Shown: piece after piece, positions 1 through 11,402 of the stretch
Position numbering within the stretch: the first letter of the stretch is position 1
How the letters are laid out: each line of letters begins with the position of its first letter
IMG/VR virus record: IMGVR_UViG_2778261535_000006
Span: 1 to 21,603 of that record
Source: a virus
Taxonomy: Duplodnaviria; Heunggongvirae; Uroviricota; Caudoviricetes
Direction: 5' to 3' (one strand)
DNA length: 21,603 nucleotides
Made by a program: the position numbers and the translations under genes
Notes under the pieces: generated by a model
What the model was told of the DNA's origin: nothing
Seen by the model: the letters and a program-made list of their open reading frames with translations, nothing else
The model's database searches: none

Positions 1-1511
1 ACATACTGATAGCCAGCAATTTTTTCCTGTAAGGATTTAATCTTACTTTTCTGCTCGTCAATTAACCTGTTCTGCTCCTCCAGAGCCTGCCGCGTCTTTT
101 CTTCATTATCTGCCGCTTCAGGAAGTGACATTGCAGACGTTTTCTGGCGAATTTCGTCGATTGTTGCGGCATACTGACGAGCTGATTCTCTGGCCTGCTC
201 CTGGTTCTGATACATTGTGTACCAGGCCGCCGCCCCCAGCATGACAAGTCCAGGCACACCACCAACCAGCCCCAGAGCACCACTTAACAACCGACTACTA
301 ACTGACGTAACGTTATTCAGCGTTGCCTGTGCCGCTGTTCTGGCAGCAATATTACGGGTAAGTGAAGCCTGTGCGGTTGCCAGTTTCGCTTCTGCTGCAG
401 CCTGTTTTTCTGTACCACGGGCAGCCACAACCGCCTGCTGCGCACGATACAATGCCGCCCGCGCTCTGGCTGTAGCTATCTGTGTCCCTCTGAGCTGTGC
501 CTCAGCAAGAGCCACTTCGTTTCTGGCAGCAGTGATTAACCCGGCAGTTGCAGAGCCCGCAGAGGACGCCATATTGCCAAAATATCGGGCTACACCAATT
601 GCAACCAGAGCTCCCGCCGCCGTGGCAACCGTATCAATATTATTCGCAACACCATTCATTATTCCGGTAAGCGTTTTCGTTGCACCGCTGGCATCATTCG
701 CACCACCAACCCAGGCCATAAAGGCGTTTTCAACTTTGGTTGCAGAGGATGATACGGTATCAGGCATGGCTGCATATTCATCCCGCAGCGTACCAAGCTG
801 GCTAATCAGTGCAGGAACAACCTTATCGGCGGTCAGCTTTCCATCATCCGCCATTGCCTTCAGATCTTTACGGGCAACCCCCATTCCTGCAGCCAGAGCA
901 CGAATAACACGATCACCGCTTTCATTTACTGAATTAAACTCTTCACCGCGCAGAACCCCTTGCGCCAGTGCCTGGCTGAACTGAGTGATCACCGAGCTGG
1001 CTTCCGCAGAACTGGCTCCGGACAATTTCAATCCTGTAGAAATGGCCTCGGTAACTTTCAGTACTTCCTCAGACCTGTAACCATATTCCCGCATAGAAGA
1101 AGCCGAACGTGCAAAAAGACTGGCGTTATCAGCAAAAGCAGTACCCGTTCTCTGGCTGATCGCCATCAATTCGCGCTGTGATGCCTGGAAATCATCGCTG
1201 GACTGCGTGGCCTGCTTCAGACGGGCATTTACTGAACTCCATTCATCCGCAAGAGATATAAGATGTCCAGTGGCAAAAGCACCGGCAAATGCGCCAGCCA
1301 TATTCAGTGCCGAAGACTTCGCCGTATTTATCTGCTCGGTCACTTCTGCCAGTGCTCGCCGCATATCACGGGATGCAGCTGCAGACTGTCGACCTCCGTT
1401 CTGCATGGTACGGTAGTACTCCTGTCCCATACGTGAAGCTCGCGCAATTTCTGACTGGAATGACTGCGAATTTGCCGAGATTTTTATAATCAGTTCGCGT
1501 AGTGACGCCAT
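1..1511 (-). CDS. Tail tape measure protein, N-terminal ~500 codons (gene continues past the window start)
   Basis: Minus-strand frame opens with ATG at 1511..1509 (MASLRELIIKISANSQSFQ...) preceded by GGAG 8 nt upstream, and runs without a stop to position 1. Ala/Gln-rich with a Gly-rich hydrophobic segment (GALGLVGGVPGLVMLGAAAW), directly downstream of the G/GT chaperone pair. Not in the ORF track because it is truncated by the window edge. Confidence 0.7.
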   Translation of the reverse strand, partial: MASLRELIIKISANSQSFQSEIARASRMGQEYYRTMQNGGRQSAAASRDMRRALAEVTEQINTAKSSALNMAGAFAGAFATGHLISLADEWSSVNARLKQATQSSDDFQASQRELMAISQRTGTAFADNASLFARSASSMREYGYRSEEVLKVTEAISTGLKLSGASSAEASSVITQFSQALAQGVLRGEEFNSVNESGDRVIRALAAGMGVARKDLKAMADDGKLTADKVVPALISQLGTLRDEYAAMPDTVSSSATKVENAFMAWVGGANDASGATKTLTGIMNGVANNIDTVATAAGALVAIGVARYFGNMASSAGSATAGLITAARNEVALAEAQLRGTQIATARARAALYRAQQAVVAARGTEKQAAAEAKLATAQASLTRNIAARTAAQATLNNVTSVSSRLLSGALGLVGGVPGLVMLGAAAWYTMYQNQEQARESARQYAATIDEIRQKTSAMSLPEAADNEEKTRQALEEQNRLIDEQKSKIKSLQEKIAGYQY

Positions 1512-1525
1512 TCTCGTTCTCCAGG

Positions 1526-1556
1526 CAAAAAAAAACCGCCGAAGCGGTTTTTGCTT
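1526..1556 (-). terminator. Intrinsic terminator after the moron gene, before the tape measure gene
   Basis: Stem AACCGC / GCGGTT with loop CGAA (1534..1549), flanked by an A-run (1526..1535) and a T-run (1548..1557); on the minus strand the hairpin is followed by nine U. Confidence 0.6.
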
Positions 1557-1898
1557 TTAAAGAAGCCCAGCCTTACGCCTTGCTTCTTCAAGATATTCAT
1601 CATCCGTTTTTTGCGAAACGGTACTATCAGGGTTATGTGTTAAATCACTACCGCAATGCTTACACTTAATGGCTTCTTCTTTGATCAACTCCGCACAGTA
1701 AGGGCATTTTTTCATGCCATTGCTCACCATTTGTTGCTCATGCGTTTTTTCATCTTTTTGGATTACAAGTGAATGAACCAGGGCAACGATAAAGAGTAAG
1801 GCTCCGTATATCCACCATCCCCAAAATGAACGCCCTTTACTTTGCGCGATAATAGCCGGAATTAACCCCAAGACTAGCGCAATAAGAATAACTTCCAT
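1557..1898 (-). CDS. Small membrane protein with C-terminal zinc-ribbon (CPYC...CKHC); moron-like accessory gene
   Basis: ATG at 1898 with AAGGAG 6 nt upstream; two N-terminal hydrophobic helices (VILIALVLGLIPAIIA, WIYGALLFIVALVHSLVI), then Cys-x2-Cys...Cys-x2-Cys. Inserted between the GT chaperone and tape measure genes and followed by its own terminator. Confidence 0.6.
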   Translation of the reverse strand: MEVILIALVLGLIPAIIAQSKGRSFWGWWIYGALLFIVALVHSLVIQKDEKTHEQQMVSNGMKKCPYCAELIKEEAIKCKHCGSDLTHNPDSTVSQKTDDEYLEEARRKAGLL

Positions 1899-1956
1899 CA
1901 ATATCTCCTTATTTACTTAATAAAAATCGGAATCATAATCCAGTAAAGTAAGAAGA

Positions 1957-2639
1957 TCATTGTGTCGCTGCAAATAATGCATTTTCAAACGCAGTGAACG
2001 GATCTTTAATATTATTTGCAGGAACGACCTCCCACTGAAGAATCGCTTCATTCAGTGGAACTTTGACACCCTGCGCCCCGTAAACTGCAGAAACTATCTG
2101 GGCAGCCCGGATATCAGCCCGCTCGTCACCCAGCGGGCTGATCCTGTCAAATTCTGCCCACATCATGATTTCCGATGCAGACATTTCCCGGCGTAACTCT
2201 GACAATGTGCGCCCCATCCTGAGCGCCAGCATCATCAGAAAACGAATACCCGGAAGTGCTACTTTTTTTTAATAACTTCAGCATCAGTGATCAGTTCCAG
2301 TGACTGACGAAGCAGTCGTGCATGTACCGGACCATATACTGTAAGTACCTGCTCCCGATCATCCGCTGAAAACACGGGTTGCATCCCGGTATCACACAGA
2401 ACATCGATGAACAGTTCAACATCCGCTTCAAGATTTCGGCGGGCACGCTCCGCAACTGATAACGGTGTATCATCATCTCCGGTTTTAACGATCTCCTGCC
2501 AACGTAACCAGGCTTCTGCAGAGGGTTCCCGTAATACAACCGTTGTACCTTCCCACTCAGGAACATCAACTGTTTTGTGGCGAAAACCAGACATCGTCGC
2601 CAGTGCCAGATTGCGGATATTTTTAGACATAGATTTCAT
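1957..2639 (-). CDS. Tail assembly chaperone G-T fusion product made by -1 programmed frameshift
   Basis: Heptamer A AAA AAG at minus 2268..2262, directly before the G stop codon (2261..2259). The -1 frame continues open (KKVALPGIRFLMMLALRMGR...) to the stop at 1957, the same frame as track ORF 1957..2235. Confidence 0.6.
2259..2639 (-). CDS. Tail assembly chaperone (lambda gpG-like)
   Basis: 126-aa ORF immediately downstream of the major tail gene, AAGGAGG RBS before ATG 2639, ends ...EVIKKK* on a slippery A-AAA-AAG run; position and size match G-type chaperones. Confidence 0.7.
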   Translation of the reverse strand: MKSMSKNIRNLALATMSGFRHKTVDVPEWEGTTVVLREPSAEAWLRWQEIVKTGDDDTPLSVAERARRNLEADVELFIDVLCDTGMQPVFSADDREQVLTVYGPVHARLLRQSLELITDAEVIKKK

Positions 2640-2644
2640 CCTCC

Positions 2645-3349
2645 TTAACTGACAGTTACGGTGCAGGAAGTGGAGGTCACCTTATTAACCGGGCTTGCTG
2701 AATCAGAAACCTCACAGGTATACGCACCGGCATCTCCGGATGTCACGGAGGCCTTGTTGAAAGTTGCCGATGTCTGCCCGGAAACTGGAGAGCTGCCTTT
2801 CTTCCAGACATATGAATAAGGAGGCACACCACCTGATGCCTCAACAGACATATTCAGCGTTTCACTGGCAGAAACCTGTAGTGTACTTTTCAAATCAGAG
2901 AGGAGTTTCAAAGGTTCAGTGGTCAGAGAGGGCTTTCCTTTCAGGCGCAGGGAAAATGTGGCAGCAACAACACCGTTGGTTCCCACAGACCAGGTATGCT
3001 GGCGAACTTCTGCCATAAAGGTAAATCCATTTCCTGACGGGAAAATAACTTTGAAACCGTATGTGGTGTCGTTGTCATAAGCACTACGCAACGCGTTCTG
3101 GGCAGCGTTGAGATAAAAGTTTCCTGACATGGAAATCTCTGAAGCAGCCCCAAGACCGTTGATATTCTCCTGCTCGGTAGAACACAGCGTAGTGACATCA
3201 ATATCCTGTTTCTGCCCGGCGGTAAACTGAACCTCTTTAATCGTACAGCTCAGTTCAAGAAAACTGGCAGAACTCAGCGTTTCTGCCGTTACCGGTGCAG
3301 ACGAGATCATGACTTTGGTCTGCTGAGAACGTTCAAAATTAGAGGACAT
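2645..3349 (-). CDS. Major tail protein with C-terminal Ig-like (Big_2-type) domain
   Basis: Start taken at ATG 3349 (MSSNFERS...) with GGAG 7 nt upstream rather than the track start at 3400. C-terminal ~80 aa Ser/Thr-rich with the Ig-like pattern PPYSYVWKKG...GAYTCEVSD...CTVTV. Sits between tail completion genes and the G/GT pair. Confidence 0.7.
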   Translation of the reverse strand: MSSNFERSQQTKVMISSAPVTAETLSSASFLELSCTIKEVQFTAGQKQDIDVTTLCSTEQENINGLGAASEISMSGNFYLNAAQNALRSAYDNDTTYGFKVIFPSGNGFTFMAEVRQHTWSVGTNGVVAATFSLRLKGKPSLTTEPLKLLSDLKSTLQVSASETLNMSVEASGGVPPYSYVWKKGSSPVSGQTSATFNKASVTSGDAGAYTCEVSDSASPVNKVTSTSCTVTVS

Positions 3350-3361
3350 ACTCGTCTCCTG

Positions 3362-3387
3362 AAAATAAAAAACCCGCCAGCGGCGGG
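3362..3387 (-). terminator. Terminator-like hairpin plus U-run immediately upstream of the major tail gene RBS
   Basis: Minus strand: CCCGCC-GCT-GGCGGG (3373..3387) followed by TTTTTTATTTT, then CAGGAG and ATG 3349. Confidence 0.45.
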
Positions 3388-3408
3388 TGGGTAAAATCAT
3401 TAACGACC

Positions 3409-3753
3409 TCAGGCAATTACCTGAAATTCAAGCGTAGCTCTGCTCAGACGGGAATCAGGATCATAACCCTGAGTTTTAGAAATAACGGATGGTGCCAGTT
3501 CCCTTACCGCATCAAGCGCCTGCTCACGGATATCATCTGCGTCATCAGGAGCCGTTGCCCAGATATCAATCTGCACTGTGATTCTGGATTCAGCCTGACC
3601 ATCAAGCACATCAGACGCGATGTCAGACACCACTGAAAACACCAGCCATGGTGGAAATACCGCAGGCTTTCCCTCCGTCAGCGGGACCACATAAGGATAA
3701 ACCTGCCCTCCGGCCAGTTTGGACAGAAGAGCATACAGCGTGGCTTCTCTCAT
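3409..3753 (-). CDS. Tail component, probable tail terminator / tail completion protein
   Basis: 114-aa ORF between the HK97 gp10-like gene and the major tail gene; call is by position in the head-tail joining block only. Confidence 0.45.
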   Translation of the reverse strand: MREATLYALLSKLAGGQVYPYVVPLTEGKPAVFPPWLVFSVVSDIASDVLDGQAESRITVQIDIWATAPDDADDIREQALDAVRELAPSVISKTQGYDPDSRLSRATLEFQVIA

Positions 3754-4220
3754 TTACTCAGCACCCCATCAATAGCCTGATTCATATGCTTCATGGCAAC
3801 CTGTGCTGCCAGCTCCTCTGTCATATCAAAGGCCGGGCGAATGAACGGATGGGCAGGCATATTGATAGTCCCCAGCTCCACGAAACGCCAGTAAAACGCG
3901 TTTCGCGGATCGCTGGCTTTCATGCTGTTATCACTGTTTCCGGTTCGCAGATTCCGCCCACGAATGTGGACACCAGAGATAATTTCACCACGACGCCGTG
4001 AACGCTGAGTCAGAATAACCACGTTTTTCTTCAGTTTTCCGGTTCGCTCTGGCGCATGGTCAATAACCGCCTCCCGGATAACCTCTGCTCCGGCACGGGA
4101 GGCATCGCGAAGCACCTTATTACTCTCTGCTCTGCTGAGAAGTTCCAGATCTCTTGCAATATCCGCCAGGCCAGAAAAATCCAGACTAAAATCCGTCACA
4201 TTCCACCTCTCTGGCTGCAA
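3750..4220 (-). CDS. Head-tail joining protein (HK97 gp10-like family)
   Basis: 156-aa ORF overlapping its neighbours by 4 and 25 nt; size and position fit this family. Confidence 0.5.
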   Translation of the reverse strand: MQPERWNVTDFSLDFSGLADIARDLELLSRAESNKVLRDASRAGAEVIREAVIDHAPERTGKLKKNVVILTQRSRRRGEIISGVHIRGRNLRTGNSDNSMKASDPRNAFYWRFVELGTINMPAHPFIRPAFDMTEELAAQVAMKHMNQAIDGVLSK

Positions 4221-5112: not shown

Positions 5113-5710
5113 TCTTCAGCAGTTTGATGGCCTGCGAATCGACCAGCATGCCGCCGGTGCGCTTGGTGGTATAAAAACCGACAAACGGTTTATTGGTGTA
5201 CGGGTCGCGCAGAATGCGGGTGCCGATACGGTCAACGATGGTGTAACCCCGTTTGAAGTTACCAAATGCAATAGCTTTCGCATCCGCAGCGATATCCGGC
5301 ATCTGCTCGTTTTCAGCGATACCGTAACCCGCCAGAGAGGACGGTTGCCCCAGTTCCAGCCCCGGACGCCACAGATAATTACCCTCGGTGTCTTTCAGCA
5401 GACGGATGGCAAACAGGCTGTTGTTGTTCATCATGAACTTCGCACCAGTGCGGTGTGCCTTACGCAGCGTGTAAATCAGTTTGATAACGGCGTCTGCGGT
5501 CACCGTCGTCGCTTCGCCGGATACAATATGCTGAAGTTTGCCGAACGCACGAACATTATCGGTTTCATCGGTGGATTCATACGCCAGGAACCCTTTCGGC
5601 TTCTTGGTACCATCGCCGGTGGTAAAGGCAATTTCTTCCTGTTCGGCAAATTCGGTTGCCAGCTCGCTGTTGATCCAGGCTTCCACGTTGAAAAAGGCAT
5701 CATCCAGCAT
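5099..5710 (-). pseudogene. Major capsid protein (HK97 fold), C-terminal ~200 codons only
   Basis: Begins mid-protein at the HK97-family motif E.EE.AF..GDG..KP.GFL ([21 protein letters not shown]) and ends ...FVGFYTTKRTGGMLVDSQAIKLLKIAAA. Upstream in this frame is terminase DNA read out of frame, so the N-terminal half of the capsid protein is absent. Confidence 0.6.
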
Positions 5711-7416
5711 TTTCTGGGTGGCCTGCGGTCTTCTTTCTCGTACAGCATGGCTCTGCCAACCGCCATAATCAGCGCAACTGCACCATCGATTTTGTTTTCC
5801 GCCTGCTCTTTGACGGGCTTCACCACATCATCGTTACCCGGAATGGTTTTGCCGACCACGTTGCCGATACACCAGGTCATGATGGGATTGCCATCATGAT
5901 GAAAGCGCCCCGATTCAATTGCCGCTTCCAGCTCTTTCATCGGGTCGGACATGTTGGTGTAGTTCTGAATGATAGTGATGGGGTTCAGGTCTTCATCAGC
6001 AAGGTCATGTGACAACCCGGTCGCCCCGAAGGGGTCGATGGGTGACTCACTGACCGGGCTGATTTTGTTCGCCGCTTTGGCCTCCTCGAGGATGTAGCGA
6101 TAATCCACCTCCGCACCATCGGTAACGGTCAGAACGCCCATTTCCACCCATTTCTGAAAGCGTTCGGCTGTCCGTCGATCTTCATTTTTCTCGACGCTGT
6201 ACACCGTGTCATACGGTACCCAGAAACGCGGGGCCACACTGTAGTAATGCGTTTTACCGTCAATCTCGCGGGTATAAAGTCGCGCCATGCTGTTCATATC
6301 CAGCTTACGCGCCAGGTCAAAGGCCAGAATGCACGGCTGCCCCTCGAACTGCTCAAGGGTCAGTGATTTATCCTCGCAGCTCTGCCAGCTCACCAGGTTG
6401 AAATACGCCGAACGCGCCGACACCCAGATATTGAGGTGTTTTGTTTTAAAGACGTTTGCCAGACGGGCGTTATTTTTCGCACGCTGCTGCTGACTTAACA
6501 AAAATTCGCGATAAACCGACACGCCAATATTCGGGTTAGCTTTTTCCAGCACCTGCGGGTCGGTCCAGTCATCGCCTTCGTCAACGGTATAGATGATCCC
6601 GAACAGTTCATCGTTGGGTACCGACCCGTTGAGCATCTCGATAACTTCCCGTCGCTTGTCGTAGCACGGCCCCTCAATGTTGTACCCGGCAGTAGTAATG
6701 GCCCACATCAGTGGCTGACGTCGCGCCCCCATCCCGGTAAGCATCGTGGTGTAAAGCGCATCGGTGGCGTGCTCGTGATATTCATCCACCACCGCACAGT
6801 GGGGTGATGAACCATCACCGGGGTTACCGATCAGCGGTTCAAACCGCGCGCCATCCTCCGGACGATTCATGTTTGAGGCGTTAACCTCAATCCCGAACGC
6901 TTCCGTCAGCATGGGTGTGCGTTTACACATCAGTCTTGCCGGACGAAAGACTTCCCATGCCTGTTTCTCCGTCGTGGCACCGGAATACACTTCCGCGCCG
7001 AACTCGTTATCACAGGCAAAACAATACAGGGCGACACCGGCAGAGATTGCTGATTTGCCGTTCTTACGGGGGATTTCGGTATACACCTCCCGGAAGCGGC
7101 GCAGCCGGGAGCCTTTATTGACCCAGCCAAACGCGCAGCAGATCACAAAGAGCTGCCACGGCTCCAGCGTGATGGGCATCCTCTTGAATGCCCACTCACC
7201 CTTGGTGTGCGGCAACAGCTGAATAAATTTGGCGGCCCGTTCAGCCAGGTCCTTGTCGAAGCGGTAACGAAACGACTTACTTTTTTCCGCCATCAGGTCA
7301 TCAAGATGGCGCTGGCAGGCCTGAATCACAAACTGGCAGGCCACAATCTTTCCGCGCACAACATCACGGGCATACTGATTGGCAGCATTTACGTTGGGGT
7401 AAGATTTCCGGCTCAT
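5500..7416 (-). CDS. Terminase large subunit; 3' end is abnormal and reads out of frame ~70 codons into the capsid remnant
   Basis: 638-aa ORF, ATGA overlap with the small terminase stop. Terminase-like through ...[22 protein letters not shown], then low-complexity Pro/Arg/Trp-rich text ([19 protein letters not shown]...) that is capsid DNA in the wrong frame. Confidence 0.8.
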
Positions 7417-7957: not shown

Positions 7958-8006
7958 GGGGCGGGCAGTCCTGAAGGCGTCAGGTCACAGAGATTTGACC
8001 CGCCCC
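7958..8006. repeat. GC-rich nested palindrome between HNH and small terminase genes; candidate cos site or terminator
   Basis: GGGGCGGG (7958..7965) and CCCGCCCC (7999..8006) are perfect inverted repeats enclosing the inner palindrome CCTGA-aggcg-TCAGG (7970..7984). On the minus strand it is followed by a U-rich tract. Confidence 0.35.
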
Positions 8007-8032
8007 TCCCCTCTGGCAGTGGGAACTGGTTC

Positions 8033-8383
8033 TTACTTCAGCCGTTCACGAGCCGTTTTCGCCTTATGACACGGCCAGCACAGGCTCTGCAGATTGCTGT
8101 CTGAATCTGTGCCGCCATGCGCTTTAGGAATGATGTGGTCAACGGTTTTCGCCTCACGCACCACACCAGCACGCAGACATAACTGACATAAACCTTTGTC
8201 ACGCTTCAGGACGCGCACGCGGATACCATCCCACTTCGAACCATAACCGCGCTGATGACGGGATTGTCCTGGCTTGTATTGCTTCCAGCCTTCACTTTTG
8301 TGGCTTTCGCAATAGCCTGACGGGTCAGTTGTGGTATGGCGGCAGCCGCGAACACGGCAGGCTTTTGGGGTTCGTGGTGGCAT
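8033..8383 (-). CDS. HNH endonuclease (terminase-associated)
   Basis: Start taken at ATG 8383 (MPPRTPKACRVRGC...) with GGAG 7 nt upstream. Cys-rich with HNH motif ...VDHIIPKAHGGTDSDSNLQSLCWPCH; located just upstream of the terminase genes. Confidence 0.8.
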   Translation of the reverse strand: MPPRTPKACRVRGCRHTTTDPSGYCESHKSEGWKQYKPGQSRHQRGYGSKWDGIRVRVLKRDKGLCQLCLRAGVVREAKTVDHIIPKAHGGTDSDSNLQSLCWPCHKAKTARERLK

Positions 8384-8392
8384 GCTGGCTCC

Positions 8393-8418
8393 AATAAAAA
8401 GCCCCGCGACGCGAGGCT
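8393..8418 (-). terminator. Intrinsic terminator-like hairpin after the small membrane protein gene
   Basis: Minus strand: GCCUCGC-guc-GCGGGGC stem followed by UUUUUAUU, immediately before the HNH RBS. Confidence 0.4.
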
Positions 8419-8448
8419 TAGACAGAAAAAACACCGGATAAGATCTGG

Positions 8449-8652
8449 TCATTCTTCCTTTTTAATAATGACTTCTCGAGGGCGCAATTGTTGGATAGCA
8501 CGACAAATACAATATGGAATAACTGCCCATGCTACTCCCATTGCTGCACCTGCAGCCTGTTGTGGAGCACTCTGAGCACCGAAAACCCCGAGGATTCCTT
8601 CAATAAATCCAATAGCACTACACAAAAGACTGATGACCCAGAGAATTTTCAT
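8449..8652 (-). CDS. Small hydrophobic membrane protein, function unknown
   Basis: ATG 8652 with AGGAG ~9 nt upstream; 67 aa with two hydrophobic segments (ILWVISLLCSAIGFIEGILGVFGA, AAMGVAWAVIPYCICRAI). Confidence 0.5.
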   Translation of the reverse strand: MKILWVISLLCSAIGFIEGILGVFGAQSAPQQAAGAAMGVAWAVIPYCICRAIQQLRPREVIIKKEE

Positions 8653-8769
8653 AAACCCAAACTCCTTTTAAATAAACACATTACTAGGATAATTCTCATA
8701 AAATGTTAGTAAAGTATTTTCAGGAAAATAGCGTATCACTGCCTATTTTTGACACTGATGCTGGGATAA

Positions 8770-9195
8770 TTATTCCGGTCGCTGGAGTTGCTCATGATGA
8801 TACAGAGCGAGAATCAGGTCATAAGACCCTTGCCTGTCTTTGTAACCAGTTTTATCAACCAATTCAGCTTTACTGATTCCGGGTAAATCAAGAATCAGAT
8901 TCGCAACTTCAATTGCCCTTTGGTACAACTTACCGCCCTTTTTCTCCCCATGCACTGGTTTTACATTCTTGAGGTAACCGCTATCCGCCAGGGCGAGAAA
9001 TGTTGCCCTTGGGCATATCTTCTTTCTTGACGATTCGCTTTCTGTAACCTCTGCGACAGCTGCATCCCATGCATCACGAGGAGTCATTGAGCTATCAGCC
9101 ACCAAATGATAAGCGATTAAAGCAGCGTGAGCGTATTGAGACATAATGCATCCATATACAAAAATCTTATGATAAGACTTTTCTAATATGAACAC
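8770..9195 (-). CDS. Hypothetical protein (start ambiguous: track start 9195 or internal ATG 9144)
   Basis: ORF directly downstream of Rz/Rz1 in the lambda bor position; no motif I can name. Confidence 0.45.
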
Positions 9196-9626
9196 TGTGA
9201 TCTCACATACTCTTGCAGGCCATTCAATTGGTTAGTTATGGTTTCGATGCGCTCTCTGAGAACGAAATAATCCCGTTGAGCGGTGTCAGTAAGTCTGGGG
9301 CTGGAAGCATCATCCACGCCGGAGGCGGCGGTGGTTTTATGCATGTCGGGACAGACTGCTTTGACGTGCAGCCACTTACGACCAGCAGAAACATCAGCAC
9401 GAAGACTTTCGATAGTCGCGTTAGCATCAGCAAGCTCCTTTGTATATCTGGCATCGAGTTCAGCTACATTACGTTGACGTTTCTGCATGTCAGCGATAAT
9501 GGATGCGGCCTTATCGCGCTGTTCTTTGTAGGCGATGGCGTTATCACGGTAATGATTAACAGCCCATGACAGGCAGGCGATGATACAAATAACCAGAGCG
9601 GAGATAATCGCAGTTACTCTGCTCAT
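9183..9626 (-). CDS. Rz: Rz i-spanin
   Basis: [39 protein letters not shown]...[19 protein letters not shown] closely matches lambda Rz as I recall it; N-terminal TM helix plus coiled coil; follows the endolysin gene. Confidence 0.9.
9236..9427 (-). CDS. Rz1: Rz1 o-spanin lipoprotein, embedded in the +1 frame of Rz
   Basis: Signal peptide and lipobox ([13 protein letters not shown]), proline-rich [10 protein letters not shown] and ...TPLNGIIS, matching lambda Rz1; start taken at internal Met (MLTRLSK...) rather than the track start. Confidence 0.8.
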
Positions 9627-10099
9627 ACCTCAATCTCACTGACCGTTCCGCCAGCTTCTTTGAATTTTGCAATCAGGCTGTCAGCCTTATGCTCGAACTG
9701 ACCATAACCAGCGCCCGGCAGTGAAGCCCAGATATTGCTGCAACGGTCGATAGCCTGACGAATATCACCGCGATCAATCATCGGTAAAGCGCCACGCTCT
9801 TTAATCTGCTGCAGTGCAACAGCGTCCTGGCTTTTCGGAGAGAAGTCTTTCAGCCCTAGCTGCTTGCGGTAGGCATCCCACCAACGGGAAAGAAGCTGGT
9901 AACGTCCAGCTGCAGTTGATTTAAGTTGCGGGTTTAGCGTGACAAGTTTGCGAGGGTGATCGGAGTAATCAGTGAAGAGTTCGCCACCGACAATAACGTC
10001 ATAACCGTGATTGCGGGTTGGCTGCCGTCCGTTATCCGTTCCTTCTGACCACGCCAACATATCGAGGAAAGCTTTACGCTGAGGATTAAGATTTTGCAT
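9623..10099 (-). CDS. R: Endolysin, lambda R-type lytic transglycosylase
   Basis: ...[50 protein letters not shown]... is nearly identical to lambda R as I recall it. Confidence 0.9.
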
Positions 10100-10403
10100 T
10101 TTTCACCCCTGTCAGTCGTTCCCAGAAGTACGTCAGTGCAACCGAACCCATCGCACCACTAATCCCCGCCGTCGCGAGAATCATGTAAATGCTGAATCCA
10201 CTTTCGATACTGATCAGGCCACCAATAACACCGGTGAATCCCGATACCACTATCTGAGCCAGAGCATTTATCCAGCTCCACGTTGCTTTACTCTGCTTCA
10301 CATCTATCAGGTAGCGGACCAGACCGCCCCAACCTGCGATGATCAGCAAAACGAGCCAGAACGCTCCGGCAAGGCTCTCTTTTTCGTGCATATGAATAGC
10401 CAA
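10086..10403 (-). CDS. Holin (three predicted TM segments, not lambda S-type)
   Basis: 105 aa, three hydrophobic segments, charged C-terminus, immediately upstream of and overlapping the endolysin gene; Met1 and Met5 (MAIHMHEKE) could form a holin/antiholin dual start. Confidence 0.65.
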   Translation of the reverse strand: MAIHMHEKESLAGAFWLVLLIIAGWGGLVRYLIDVKQSKATWSWINALAQIVVSGFTGVIGGLISIESGFSIYMILATAGISGAMGSVALTYFWERLTGVKNAKS

Positions 10404-10505
10404 TGTTTCGCCGCCGACAAAAGGCCGGGACGTTAAATGTCAGAAATCAGGCTCACGGGGTAATTTAACGACAAAGCACGGAGTTGATGCTCCCCACAAG
10501 CCTGG

Positions 10506-10531
10506 AATAAAAAAGCCAGCATGTAACTGGC
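10506..10531 (-). terminator. Intrinsic terminator in the Q-holin intergenic region (tR'-like)
   Basis: Minus strand: GCCAG-uuacau-GCUGGC followed by UUUUUUAUU. Confidence 0.55.
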
Positions 10532-10608
10532 AACAGAGGGTTAAGCAATATCAACTCAACAGCTGAAGACACCCTGGCTGGGGTAGGTTGGAAGGCTACT
10601 AACCGTCC

Positions 10609-10644
10609 AGAAACAGAAAAGCCCAAAGTTTTAAACCTCGGGCT
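10609..10644 (-). terminator. Second hairpin plus U-rich tract in the Q-holin intergenic region
   Basis: Minus strand: AGCCCGAGG-uuuaaaa-CUUUGGGCU (two G-U pairs) followed by UUUCUGUUUCU; pairing is better on the minus than the plus strand. Confidence 0.35.
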
Positions 10645-10712
10645 TGAATTTGGATTACTGCCAGTGCGTACAACATTGGCAAAATATCAGATTTACACGA
10701 AATATATGCTTT

Positions 10713-11402
10713 TTAATCCAGTTTTGCAATACTTTGCTGTGAAAATGTGGTCTTTTGTTTTGAACGTGTTTTCGTTAAAAGCAATAAAGCTTGGCTATCA
10801 AGCTGTAGAAAAATGTGCTTCATTGCAACCCAGCGTTCAGTAAATGTCTCAGACCAGTTTTTTGATGTCACTCCCACCAGTAATGCCAGCTCCTGGTATT
10901 CATAGGTCTTACGCCCTGCCAGCTCGTTCTTCACATCCTGTGCCGCCAACCAGATCAACTTCTTTAAGCGCTCCAGTGTCTTACTGGCAATTTTTCTTGT
11001 ACCTAACAGCGCCTTAAACTCGCTCCATGCCCACTGCGTTATGGCAACCTGATGCTCCCAGCGAATATTTTCACTGTAACTCCACAGCAACCACGCTTTC
11101 TGATGTTCATCGAGAGACAAAATCGCACGCCGCCACGAAGAGGTTGAAAACTCGACCGAACTGACCAGGGTGACAGATGAACCTTTTGCGTAGGACTGTT
11201 TACCGGAAATCGGCGGATTATCCAGCGTAATCATCTTGCCAGTTACCACATCCAGAATGCGCGGCTTCTTTCGTTTGTATGTACCAGTATCAAATTGTGC
11301 ATGCTCCAGCCAGGCTTCAAGCTGGCCTTTCATTGCTCCGCTCAAATCAGCGGTAGCCACCATGAGTTGCTCGCGGACATACTGTAAATATTGGGTATTC
11401 AT
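10713..11402 (-). CDS. Putative late-gene antiterminator (Q-like, not lambda Q-type)
   Basis: 229-aa ORF between rusA and the lysis cassette, followed by a ~310-bp non-coding region carrying terminator hairpins, as in the lambda Q-pR'-tR'-S arrangement. Call is positional; the sequence does not resemble lambda Q. Confidence 0.45.
   Translation of the reverse strand: MNTQYLQYVREQLMVATADLSGAMKGQLEAWLEHAQFDTGTYKRKKPRILDVVTGKMITLDNPPISGKQSYAKGSSVTLVSSVEFSTSSWRRAILSLDEHQKAWLLWSYSENIRWEHQVAITQWAWSEFKALLGTRKIASKTLERLKKLIWLAAQDVKNELAGRKTYEYQELALLVGVTSKNWSETFTERWVAMKHIFLQLDSQALLLLTKTRSKQKTTFSQQSIAKLD

Follow-up and report, generated by a model that had tools for sequence, protein, structure and literature searches.

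Two accessory genes, for a predicted membrane hairpin and a DUF6979 protein, between the spanin and HNH genes of a defective SfI-like prophage

The slot that runs from the Rz/Rz1 spanin genes to the packaging genes and cos holds bor in lambda and borD in DLP12, and Bor is the classical conversion gene there. Prophages are also known to carry defence genes upstream of their packaging module, and the TaiEcA/AtiEcA system of phi80, a pair of one prophage-expressed and one late-expressed gene, lies in the same hot spot between lysis cassette and terminase (PMC11364771). Another comparison is provided by HK97 gp15, a moron located between the tail chaperone and tape-measure genes, whose product is a small inner-membrane protein that blocks superinfection (PMC3594210; Cumby et al.). 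Class II (two-TMD) holins and pinholins, finally, are small proteins with a pair of transmembrane helices and a charged C-terminal tail, and their genes adjoin lysis genes. Here we describe two genes in a slot of this kind. We conclude that they are probably independent, horizontally acquired accessory genes of an SfI-like prophage, one of them a moron cassette for a 67-aa membrane protein and the other a DUF6979 gene that would be read with the late genes.

The window, a stretch of 21,603 nt of tailed-phage DNA, belongs to a defective SfI-like lambdoid prophage; positions 7958-9626, Rz included, are 96.8% identical to SfI. A first-pass annotation had placed two genes between the spanin genes and an HNH gene, and this arrangement holds: the Rz/Rz1-HNH interval contains two real ORFs, both on the minus strand. 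Upstream, the slot is bounded by the Rz i-spanin gene (9183..9626, minus strand; Pfam Phage_lysis 7e-40, phrog_13 2e-70), in which Rz1 is embedded (9454-9236, minus strand). Its downstream boundary is the HNH endonuclease gene (8033..8383, minus strand; PF01844 1.3e-16), which is part of the packaging module. The corrected start of this gene gives a protein of 117 aa; a 139-aa version of the ORF is over-called, SfI and SfIV both being annotated with a start equivalent to window position 8383. To call the slot equivalent to that of bor, as had been done, is fair, given that the end of the SfI genome (cos) comes after HNH. In lambda-like prophages, likewise, DUF6979 lies between Rz and the gene for the small terminase subunit, which is the DLP12 borD slot.

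The position is what the locus shares with these systems, and with phi80 perhaps also the pairing of a prophage-expressed with a late-expressed gene. A comparison with DLP12, proposed as the place to begin, gave nothing: BorD, YbcV, YbcW and YlcI are all without similarity to the two proteins (BLASTP E >= 0.25, with trivial alignments), and YbcV is a DUF1398 protein that neither of them resembles. Bor, moreover, differs in being an outer-membrane lipoprotein whose gene is on the opposite strand. None of five proteins from the phi80 slot, Tai/Ati (orf63/orf64) included, produced a BLASTP match at E <= 10.

Over both genes the GC content drops into a trough, with values of 0.345-0.45 at 8500-9200 where the flanks have 0.52-0.60 (~55%). 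The Rz-HNH interval of SfIV contains neither gene but 292 bp of unrelated DNA, and homology picks up again at the HNH ribosome-binding site. They are also missing from most relatives, even from those that share HNH, as SfIV does, or Rz. Over the two genes dN/dS is 0.07-0.25, and both ORFs are thus real genes under purifying selection. An Rfam scan of 8300-9300 returned no match at gathering score. The locus is, in short, an ordinary hot spot for accessory genes.

The gene nearer to HNH (8449..8652, minus strand) encodes a two-helix inner-membrane protein, as judged from phrog_12304, AlphaFold and hydropathy. A 67-aa membrane protein with two helices had been read from the translation, and the AlphaFold model agrees, predicting a helical hairpin (H2-25 and H29-56) with a pLDDT of 88. 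The protein is a full-length member of PHROG 12304 (E 2.1e-44, 67/67 positions). In the family alignment the turn, SAPQQAAGAA, is invariant and AWAVIPYC forms a motif; dN/dS for the gene is 0.07-0.09. There are 45 homologous protein clusters across Enterobacterales, and distant homologues occur in non-enteric bacteria, some of them fused to an N-terminal zinc-ribbon. Searches for a relative of known function gave little. Foldseek with the model found no match at E < 1 in the PDB, only generic transmembrane hairpins (e.g. HtrII), and a profile search against PDB sequences returned chance matches. The one hit in PADLOC-DB 2.0 was PycC, which at E 0.026 is not significant. A Pfam hit to T4SS_pilin (E 0.059, 13.9 bits against a cut-off of 26.6) was treated as compositional. 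NCBIfam contained nothing significant for either of the two proteins, and direct reading of the sequences revealed a signal peptide or lipobox in neither.

As far as can be read from the DNA, this gene forms a separate cassette of ~340 bp, in which a promoter-like region and a ribosome-binding site precede the ORF and an intrinsic terminator follows it. The strong ribosome-binding site that had been reported is present (AAGGAG at 8667-8662, 9 nt before the ATG). Upstream of the gene is a conserved region with putative regulatory function (8653..8727, minus strand), delimited by conservation and a hexamer search. It contains GAAAAT (8721-8716), a candidate -35 element TTTACT (8713-8708), a 16-nt spacer and a candidate -10 element TATCCT (8691-8686); TTTACT-N16-TATCCT agrees with the sigma-70 consensus at 8/12 positions, which is below the threshold of the promoter scan. 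Among 61 distinct cassettes, the mean pairwise identity of the upstream 75 nt is 0.70 and exceeds that of third codon positions (0.55) and of the flanks (0.37-0.46).

The terminator-like hairpin noticed earlier is also borne out, and it has the form of an intrinsic terminator (8392..8419, minus strand): a 9-bp GC-rich stem (8419-8399), AAGCCTCGC-GUC-GCGGGGCUU in the transcript, is followed by a U-run, the T-run extending to 8392. Because HNH starts at 8383, the hairpin lies between the 67-aa gene and HNH and not inside HNH. A homologous hairpin, AGCCTCGC-N4-GCGGGGCT with a T-run, follows the 67-aa gene in 82/89 loci, and among the 61 cassettes the mean pairwise identity of the terminator is 0.79, against 0.45 on either side. 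Terminator and conserved promoter-like region together accompany the gene through ~60 different flanks. An envelope theme shows in the copies that have no terminator: there the 67-aa gene directly adjoins or overlaps the next gene downstream, whose product is exported or a lipoprotein and comes from one of three unrelated families. In GC content the 67-aa gene (44%) and the region upstream of it (36%) both lie below the flanks (52%).

The cassette was found in more than 100 phage contigs. In the 80 that we examined, endolysin or spanin genes mostly lie upstream of the 67-aa gene and terminase or HNH genes downstream; the matched neighbours are co-oriented with it, and the types of lysis and terminase genes vary. 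Other copies adjoin tape-measure genes (in Edno5, Morganella, Pantoea, Yersinia and Buttiauxella). A reading of the Morganella site as a P4-like satellite hot spot was dropped, its 800-aa upstream gene encoding a tape-measure protein. Further copies are chromosomal, in Ewingella near icd and in Rouxiella between the genes for a lipid-A acyltransferase and a pyruvate kinase, and none of the neighbouring genes that we examined there is recognisably of phage type. Of 5426 complete E. coli genomes, 52 have the cassette.

The second gene (8770..9144, minus strand; PF22399 1.8e-28, phrog_5039 9e-70) runs from an ATG at 9144 to a stop at 8770 and encodes 124 aa. A soluble protein of about 125 to 141 aa had been proposed for it. 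The shorter form stands, beginning at ATG 9144; the 141-aa GTG start is unsupported, since both HMM matches, to Pfam and to PHROG, leave out the stretch before residue 18 of that version and all homologues begin MSQYA. It had also been said that the protein shows no motif that can be named. This proved wrong, although the name carries no function: the protein is a full-length member of Pfam DUF6979 (PF22399; 99.7 bits against a cut-off of 27, residues 1-120 of 124) and of PHROG 5039, and RefSeq labels it "DUF6979 family protein". The AlphaFold model has seven helices (pLDDT 89.7), and by this model the protein is cytoplasmic, soluble and all-helical. For its gene, dN/dS is 0.12-0.25.

The DUF6979 family has 248 representatives at E <= 0.001 and spans bacteria and archaea; outside phages it is widespread as a lone gene in archaea, Firmicutes and cyanobacteria. 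In E. coli the gene is carried by 248/5426 complete genomes. Foldseek of the model against the PDB and BFVD gave no match at E < 1, a profile search against PDB sequences gave chance matches only, and PADLOC-DB 2.0 gave none. A survey of 82 metagenomic neighbours assigned them to 81 Pfam families, none seen more than two times, so that there is no conserved neighbour. A literature search found no paper that mentions DUF6979, and neither ORF is taken up in the SfI genome paper.

Each gene occurs without the other, and the two are therefore separable. Most phage contigs with the 67-aa gene have no DUF6979 beside it; conversely, the 67-aa gene is missing from most of the E. coli prophages with DUF6979, and from the lambda-like phages 4A7, 4C10, 1W, 3W, D2 and mEp460_4F5, which have DUF6979 as well. 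They also differ in their signals. A scan of the DUF6979 strand found no promoter-like or terminator-like site next to the gene. From the stop of Rz to the ATG of DUF6979 there are 38 nt (9145..9182, minus strand), and the one signal read in this spacer is a weak ribosome-binding site, GGA. Other E. coli prophages show the same constant distance of 38 nt from one Rz allele to DUF6979, which is co-oriented with the late genes. Because it has no signals of its own, follows Rz by 38 nt and points in the late-gene direction, the DUF6979 gene looks like a passenger of the late operon rather than an autonomous moron. It would most likely be read in the Q-antiterminated late transcript.

The Juhala/Hendrix definition of a moron, as summarised in PMC3594210, separates the two genes in the same way. 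The 67-aa cassette is absent from relatives, has its own terminator and deviates in composition. On these sequence features it is structurally a moron, which is an ordinary kind of feature. The earlier view was of morons that would serve lysogenic conversion, with expression in the lysogen and a host phenotype. As to moron anatomy it is upheld for the 67-aa gene, by presence and absence, GC, terminator and mobile contexts, and only in part for the DUF6979 gene, an accessory gene of low GC for which no promoter or terminator of its own was found. We suppose that the 67-aa gene would be transcribed from its candidate promoter in the lysogen, with the terminator insulating the packaging genes, and that during lytic growth Q-modified polymerase would pass through this terminator.

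What might the 67-aa protein do? In the predicted topology, both ends of the protein would stay in the cytoplasm while its hairpin crosses the inner membrane and exposes the uncharged, conserved SAPQQ turn to the periplasm. A face of small residues (AAGAAMG) may allow it to pack with copies of itself or with another membrane protein as partner. By analogy with HK97 gp15, it would most likely act at the envelope, excluding superinfecting phages at the step of DNA entry. Envelope-level superinfection exclusion is our best guess, and a tentative one. Like the 67-aa cassette, gp15 is a terminator-flanked gene of deviant composition that is absent from relatives, and it encodes an inner-membrane protein of similar size (62 aa). 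Homologues of the 67-aa protein in Pantoea phages even share its position between chaperone and tape-measure genes. However, the cassette of the window sits at the lysis-packaging junction, and gp15 is without the conserved hairpin motifs, the 67-aa protein being a two-helix hairpin with a conserved turn predicted to be periplasmic; exclusion, established for gp15, is here a matter of analogy. BLASTP detected no similarity between the two proteins (E 0.91 over 27 residues), a result that lowers the chance that the 67-aa protein is a gp15 homologue, not that it works like gp15. Characterised exclusion proteins other than gp15 show no sequence similarity to it either.

Co-oriented neighbours and adjacent lysis genes are also what one would see with a late accessory gene of lysis. 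Both genes might be late-expressed accessories working with the adjacent holin-endolysin-spanin cassette, the hairpin as an antiholin, holin-like protein or timing modulator and DUF6979 as a cytoplasmic regulator of lysis. The 67-aa protein does resemble class II holins in its size, its two transmembrane helices and its charged C-terminus, and its gene is downstream of endolysin or spanin in most of the 80 contigs; DUF6979 is 38 nt past Rz in E. coli, and in unrelated IMG/VR phages it adjoins muramidase, lysozyme and holin genes. Yet SfIV and most relatives do without both genes even when they have the same HNH or Rz, and the lysis set of the phage is already complete; its own LydA-type holin gene is at 10403-10086 (Pfam). 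Unlike holins, the 67-aa protein matches no Pfam holin family and has no dual-start motif but a single Met-Lys start, and its gene, unlike holin genes, is downstream of the spanin genes and not upstream of the endolysin. The cassette has its own terminator and conserved upstream region. Homologues are also present in tail modules and at chromosomal sites with no recognised phage genes nearby, where a lethal holin would be hard to tolerate, and DUF6979 is common as a lone non-phage gene. We consider a lysis role for the pair quite improbable. Much the same weight falls on the suggestion that the 67-aa protein is a lysogenic-conversion factor that alters host physiology and not phage entry, for instance by modulating, as other small membrane proteins do, an inner-membrane transporter, a sensor or a stress response of the host. 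This would suit an autonomous cassette that is kept in a defective prophage and at chromosomal sites apart from recognised phage genes, the very strong purifying selection on its turn and second helix, and the distant non-enteric homologues with their zinc-ribbon fusions. The strong bias of the family to phage genomes, and its positions adjacent to tape-measure genes, are a better fit for a phage-directed role.

DUF6979, for its part, may belong to phage-host or phage-phage conflict, as a nucleic-acid- or nuclease-associated defence or counter-defence factor that protects the phage or the lysogen. One representative is fused to the C-terminal half of an HpaII-type restriction endonuclease, and another homologue heads a small integrase-flanked island with two GmrSD/DUF262 type IV restriction genes; others are near ScoMcrA-like HNH and Mrr genes, near Abi_C or near VapBC. 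The phage slots that DUF6979 uses are elsewhere filled by a pyocin DNase with its immunity gene, by Tai/Ati (PMC11364771) or by a glycosyltransferase moron. These fusions are single representatives, however, and could be artefacts of gene calling. With no conserved neighbour, no PADLOC match, no fold or sequence relative of known function found and a protein that is not basic, we regard the idea as unlikely. A more far-reaching version joins the two genes: the 67-aa hairpin would be a widespread, unrecognised superinfection-exclusion family, carried on a mobile 340-bp cassette and aimed at tape-measure-mediated entry, and DUF6979 a stand-alone conflict module linked to restriction nucleases. 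We find this rather doubtful as a whole.

Two independent accessory genes are thus the reading that we consider probable. For now the result is mainly a correction of annotation: DUF6979 and HNH receive new start codons, and one gene is added that the SfI records lack. The DUF6979 family is pan-prokaryotic, with a confident model and no fold match, so a phenotype for this one protein would help to annotate hundreds of others. Should lysogens express the 67-aa cassette and thereby exclude phages, it would be a compact and very mobile exclusion determinant, with a bearing on the host range of therapeutic phages and on competition between prophages. Clinical E. coli lineages, for example an ST648 strain, are among the carriers of the cassette.

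Every gene in the lysis-packaging part of the window lies on the minus strand. In transcription order, a Q-like gene (11402-10713) is followed by the genes for a LydA-type holin (10403-10086) and a lysozyme (10099-9623), by Rz with Rz1 embedded (9626-9183), the DUF6979 gene (ATG at 9144), a 117-nt AT-rich spacer, the 67-aa ORF (8652-8449), a hairpin with a U-run (8419-8392), HNH (start at 8383) and the small terminase subunit gene (7916-7413), with the large subunit gene next. The two genes that a first-pass annotation had placed between the spanin genes and HNH are confirmed, with corrected DUF6979 and HNH starts. The soluble protein, put there at about 125 to 141 aa, has 124 aa from ATG 9144; the 141-aa version is not supported, since the Pfam and PHROG matches start at its residue 18 and all homologues have MSQYA as their N terminus. 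Likewise, the 139-aa HNH ORF (8383-8452 extension) was called too long: SfI and SfIV annotation places the start at ATG 8383, giving 117 aa, and therefore the terminator-like hairpin, which the longer reading would cross, is intergenic. GC content is 0.345-0.45 over 8500-9200, versus 0.52-0.60 on each side.

Both ORFs are real genes, and both proteins belong to catalogued families, under the RefSeq names "DUF6979 family protein" and "hypothetical protein" (PGAP, E. coli genomes). Homologues of the 67-aa gene form 45 protein clusters across Enterobacterales; members of 66-67 aa align without internal gaps around an invariant core, SAPQQAAGAA...AWAVIPYC, and against diverged copies pN is ~0.12 with synonymous sites near saturation (dN/dS at most 0.09). 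Between DUF6979 alleles, dN/dS is 0.12-0.25.

At ~97% identity, the region matches Shigella phage SfI and prophages of 52 complete E. coli genomes. The linear SfI genome ends just past HNH, and both genes sit at its right end, with the lysis genes on one side and cos on the other. SfIV shares HNH with the window, yet its Rz-HNH gap holds only 292 bp of unrelated DNA, and homology picks up again right at the ribosome-binding site of HNH. Hence the two genes are dispensable additions.

The 67-aa protein is modeled as a helical hairpin (H2-25 and H29-56, pLDDT 88). From hydropathy and the positive-inside rule, its MK N terminus and R/K-rich C terminus would lie in the cytoplasm and its uncharged SAPQQ turn in the periplasm. 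Among 61 distinct copies of its cassette, taken from genomes and phage contigs, mean pairwise identity is 0.88, 0.95 and 0.55 at codon positions 1, 2 and 3, 0.70 over the 75 nt upstream of the ATG and 0.79 in the terminator; it is 0.45 between stop codon and terminator, 0.37-0.43 further upstream and 0.46 further downstream. A binned identity profile gave the same boundaries. Upstream, the consensus reads gATaAtGCTTTACTAAa-N11-GaaTTATCCTaaTAgCtCtTT..AAAnGGAGTTagGtT-ATG, represented in the window by TTTACT (8713-8708), a 16-nt spacer, TATCCT (8691-8686) and AAGGAG (8667-8662). The terminator consensus, AGCCTCGC-N4-GCGGGGCT followed by a T-run, is present at 82 of 89 loci. Because the two hexamers agree with the sigma-70 consensus at just 8 of 12 positions, promoter activity is no more than plausible. 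A non-coding block conserved above synonymous sites and a conserved terminator, both travelling with the ORF through unrelated flanks, would mark the cassette as an autonomous transcription unit. In many cassettes a perfect palindrome with 9-bp arms, AGGCATTCA-C-TGAATGCCT, adjoins the upstream side of a conserved GATAAT box, ~90-110 nt upstream of the hairpin gene (loci L020 and L021 and many IMG/VR loci); it is absent from the window and may serve as an operator or terminate transcription of the gene upstream.

The cassette was found in 111 IMG/VR stretches. Most of the 80 examined have an endolysin or spanin gene upstream and terminase or HNH downstream, with matched neighbors co-oriented; the lysis enzymes (GH19, GH24, CHAP), the terminase types and the spacing (70 nt to ~3 kb) vary. 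The same slot also holds other cargo, such as a glycosyltransferase classed as a moron in PHROGs. A second recurrent site is the tail module near the tape-measure gene: the cassette follows that gene immediately in Edwardsiella phage Edno5 and a Morganella element, just precedes it in Pantoea, and is a few genes away in Yersinia and Buttiauxella; in Pseudomonas the gene has a lambda tail I-like gene nearby. Several tail-module copies lack the terminator, and there the hairpin gene abuts or overlaps a downstream gene for an exported protein or lipoprotein. These partners carry a Sec signal peptide or an LSGC lipobox and fall into three unrelated families (loci L017, 6252-6779; L039, 4210-4731; L010, 6216-6560; L043, 4210-4545). 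Chromosomal cassettes occur in Ewingella near icd and in Rouxiella between lipid-A acyltransferase and pyruvate kinase genes, with no recognized phage genes among the neighbors examined. Distant relatives of the protein reach Xanthomonadales, Pseudomonas, Bacteroidota and Acidobacteria; in the Xanthomonadales homologues (L041, L050 and L051) an N-terminal CxxC...CxxC zinc-ribbon domain is fused to the two-helix core. In E. coli the gene is rare (52 of 5426 genomes), nearly invariant (at least 99% identity) and always accompanied by the SfI-type DUF6979 allele.

The soluble protein, in which no nameable motif had been seen, is a full-length member of the uncharacterized Pfam family DUF6979 (PF22399) and of PHROG 5039, neither with an assigned function. 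An exhaustive search yielded 248 representatives at 50% identity, and a profile search 714 clusters, among them Methanoculleus, Paenibacillus, Nostoc and Dickeya; almost without exception the members are 120-140 aa long and stand alone. The AlphaFold model, a confident one (pLDDT 89.7, pTM 0.86), is all-helical, with seven helices. Fold searches of PDB and BFVD gave no match at E < 1, and profile searches against PDB sequences only chance matches. Conserved positions include W26, G56 and a K-x-C-P motif at a helix N-cap; AFLGLCE and NGQMDVV motifs occur in most members. The C-terminal 16 residues of the SfI/window allele (8770-8818) are divergent, and 8818 is also the limit of nucleotide homology to the lambda-like 4A7 group, indicating a possible recombination joint within the gene's 3' end, beside the inserted cassette.

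In cellular genomes DUF6979 is a lone gene in variable regions; in phages it accompanies lysis genes. It is present in 248 of 5426 complete E. coli genomes, always 38 nt past one Rz allele, and is followed by lambda-type small and large terminase genes or, as in the window, by the 67-aa cassette and HNH. Elsewhere, on unrelated IMG/VR contigs, it is flanked by a muramidase or holin gene and by the gene for a zinc-finger protein, possibly a late regulator; the upstream neighbor is co-oriented in 22 of 22 cases. Two near-identical Enterobacter-type prophages (L004 and L005, ~1300-4035) differ in their Q-holin slot: in one it is occupied by genes for a pyocin-S/colicin DNase and the cognate immunity protein, in the other by DUF6979 and an orphan immunity gene. 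The window shows neither a promoter-like nor a terminator-like site belonging to DUF6979. Given this lysis-gene company, the co-orientation and the absence of own signals, we read it as a probable late-operon passenger rather than an autonomous moron.

What might the two genes do? Their position and orientation would suit a lysis-accessory role, but close relatives lack them, the cassette carries autonomous signals and has copies in tail modules and chromosomes, and DUF6979 extends outside phages. A conflict-system role has been considered for DUF6979, a minority of whose cellular contexts are conflict-related: it lies upstream of two GmrSD-type restriction genes in a small integrase-flanked island, together with ScoMcrA-like HNH and Mrr genes in a Paenibacillus island, and near Abi_C and VapBC elsewhere, and one representative is fused to the C-terminal half of an HpaII-type restriction enzyme. 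These few neighborhoods and one fusion are suggestive, but there is no conserved partner: 82 immediate neighbors on metagenomic contigs match 81 Pfam families, none more than twice.

The hairpin protein may serve host physiology. Its location, its exported partners and its persistence in a defective prophage and at chromosomal sites without recognized phage genes nearby together point to an envelope-level, phage-directed role. By sequence the cassette fits the definition of a moron (PMC3594210): it is added DNA of deviant composition, with a terminator and a candidate promoter of its own. The earlier reading of the slot as a site for lysogenic-conversion morons is largely correct for the membrane gene and only partly supported for the soluble one. 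[quoted passage not shown] The cassette's positions match that of gene 15. Prophage defense genes such as Tai/Ati are documented upstream of the packaging module (PMC11364771). Superinfection exclusion would be the likeliest single role of the 67-aa protein, and a tentative one. No sequence similarity was found to gp15, Bor, YlcI or the YbcV and YbcW proteins of DLP12, the comparison initially proposed, nor to phi80 proteins of the Tai/Ati slot or any PADLOC model. The cassette is well delimited and an element of a known kind, and the main value of the locus is that it lends itself to a simple assay for exclusion.

SfI carries the 67-aa gene with 100% conservation (L001; NC_027339, 37695-37895), although the gene is unannotated in GenBank and RefSeq records alike. 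Over 9623-11402 the lysis and Q modules are mosaic relative to SfI: the lysozyme, LydA-type holin and Q-like genes gave no nucleotide match to it, while Rz, DUF6979, the 67-aa gene, HNH and the terminase genes resemble those of SfI. The window prophage is defective relative to SfI. At 5728 (within 5500-7416), SfI position 2230 is joined straight to SfI 4929; this 2.7-kb deletion takes the 3' end of the large terminase gene, gp03, the portal and protease genes and the 5' half of the major capsid gene, and the 638-aa "terminase" ORF, a fusion, continues into out-of-frame capsid DNA.
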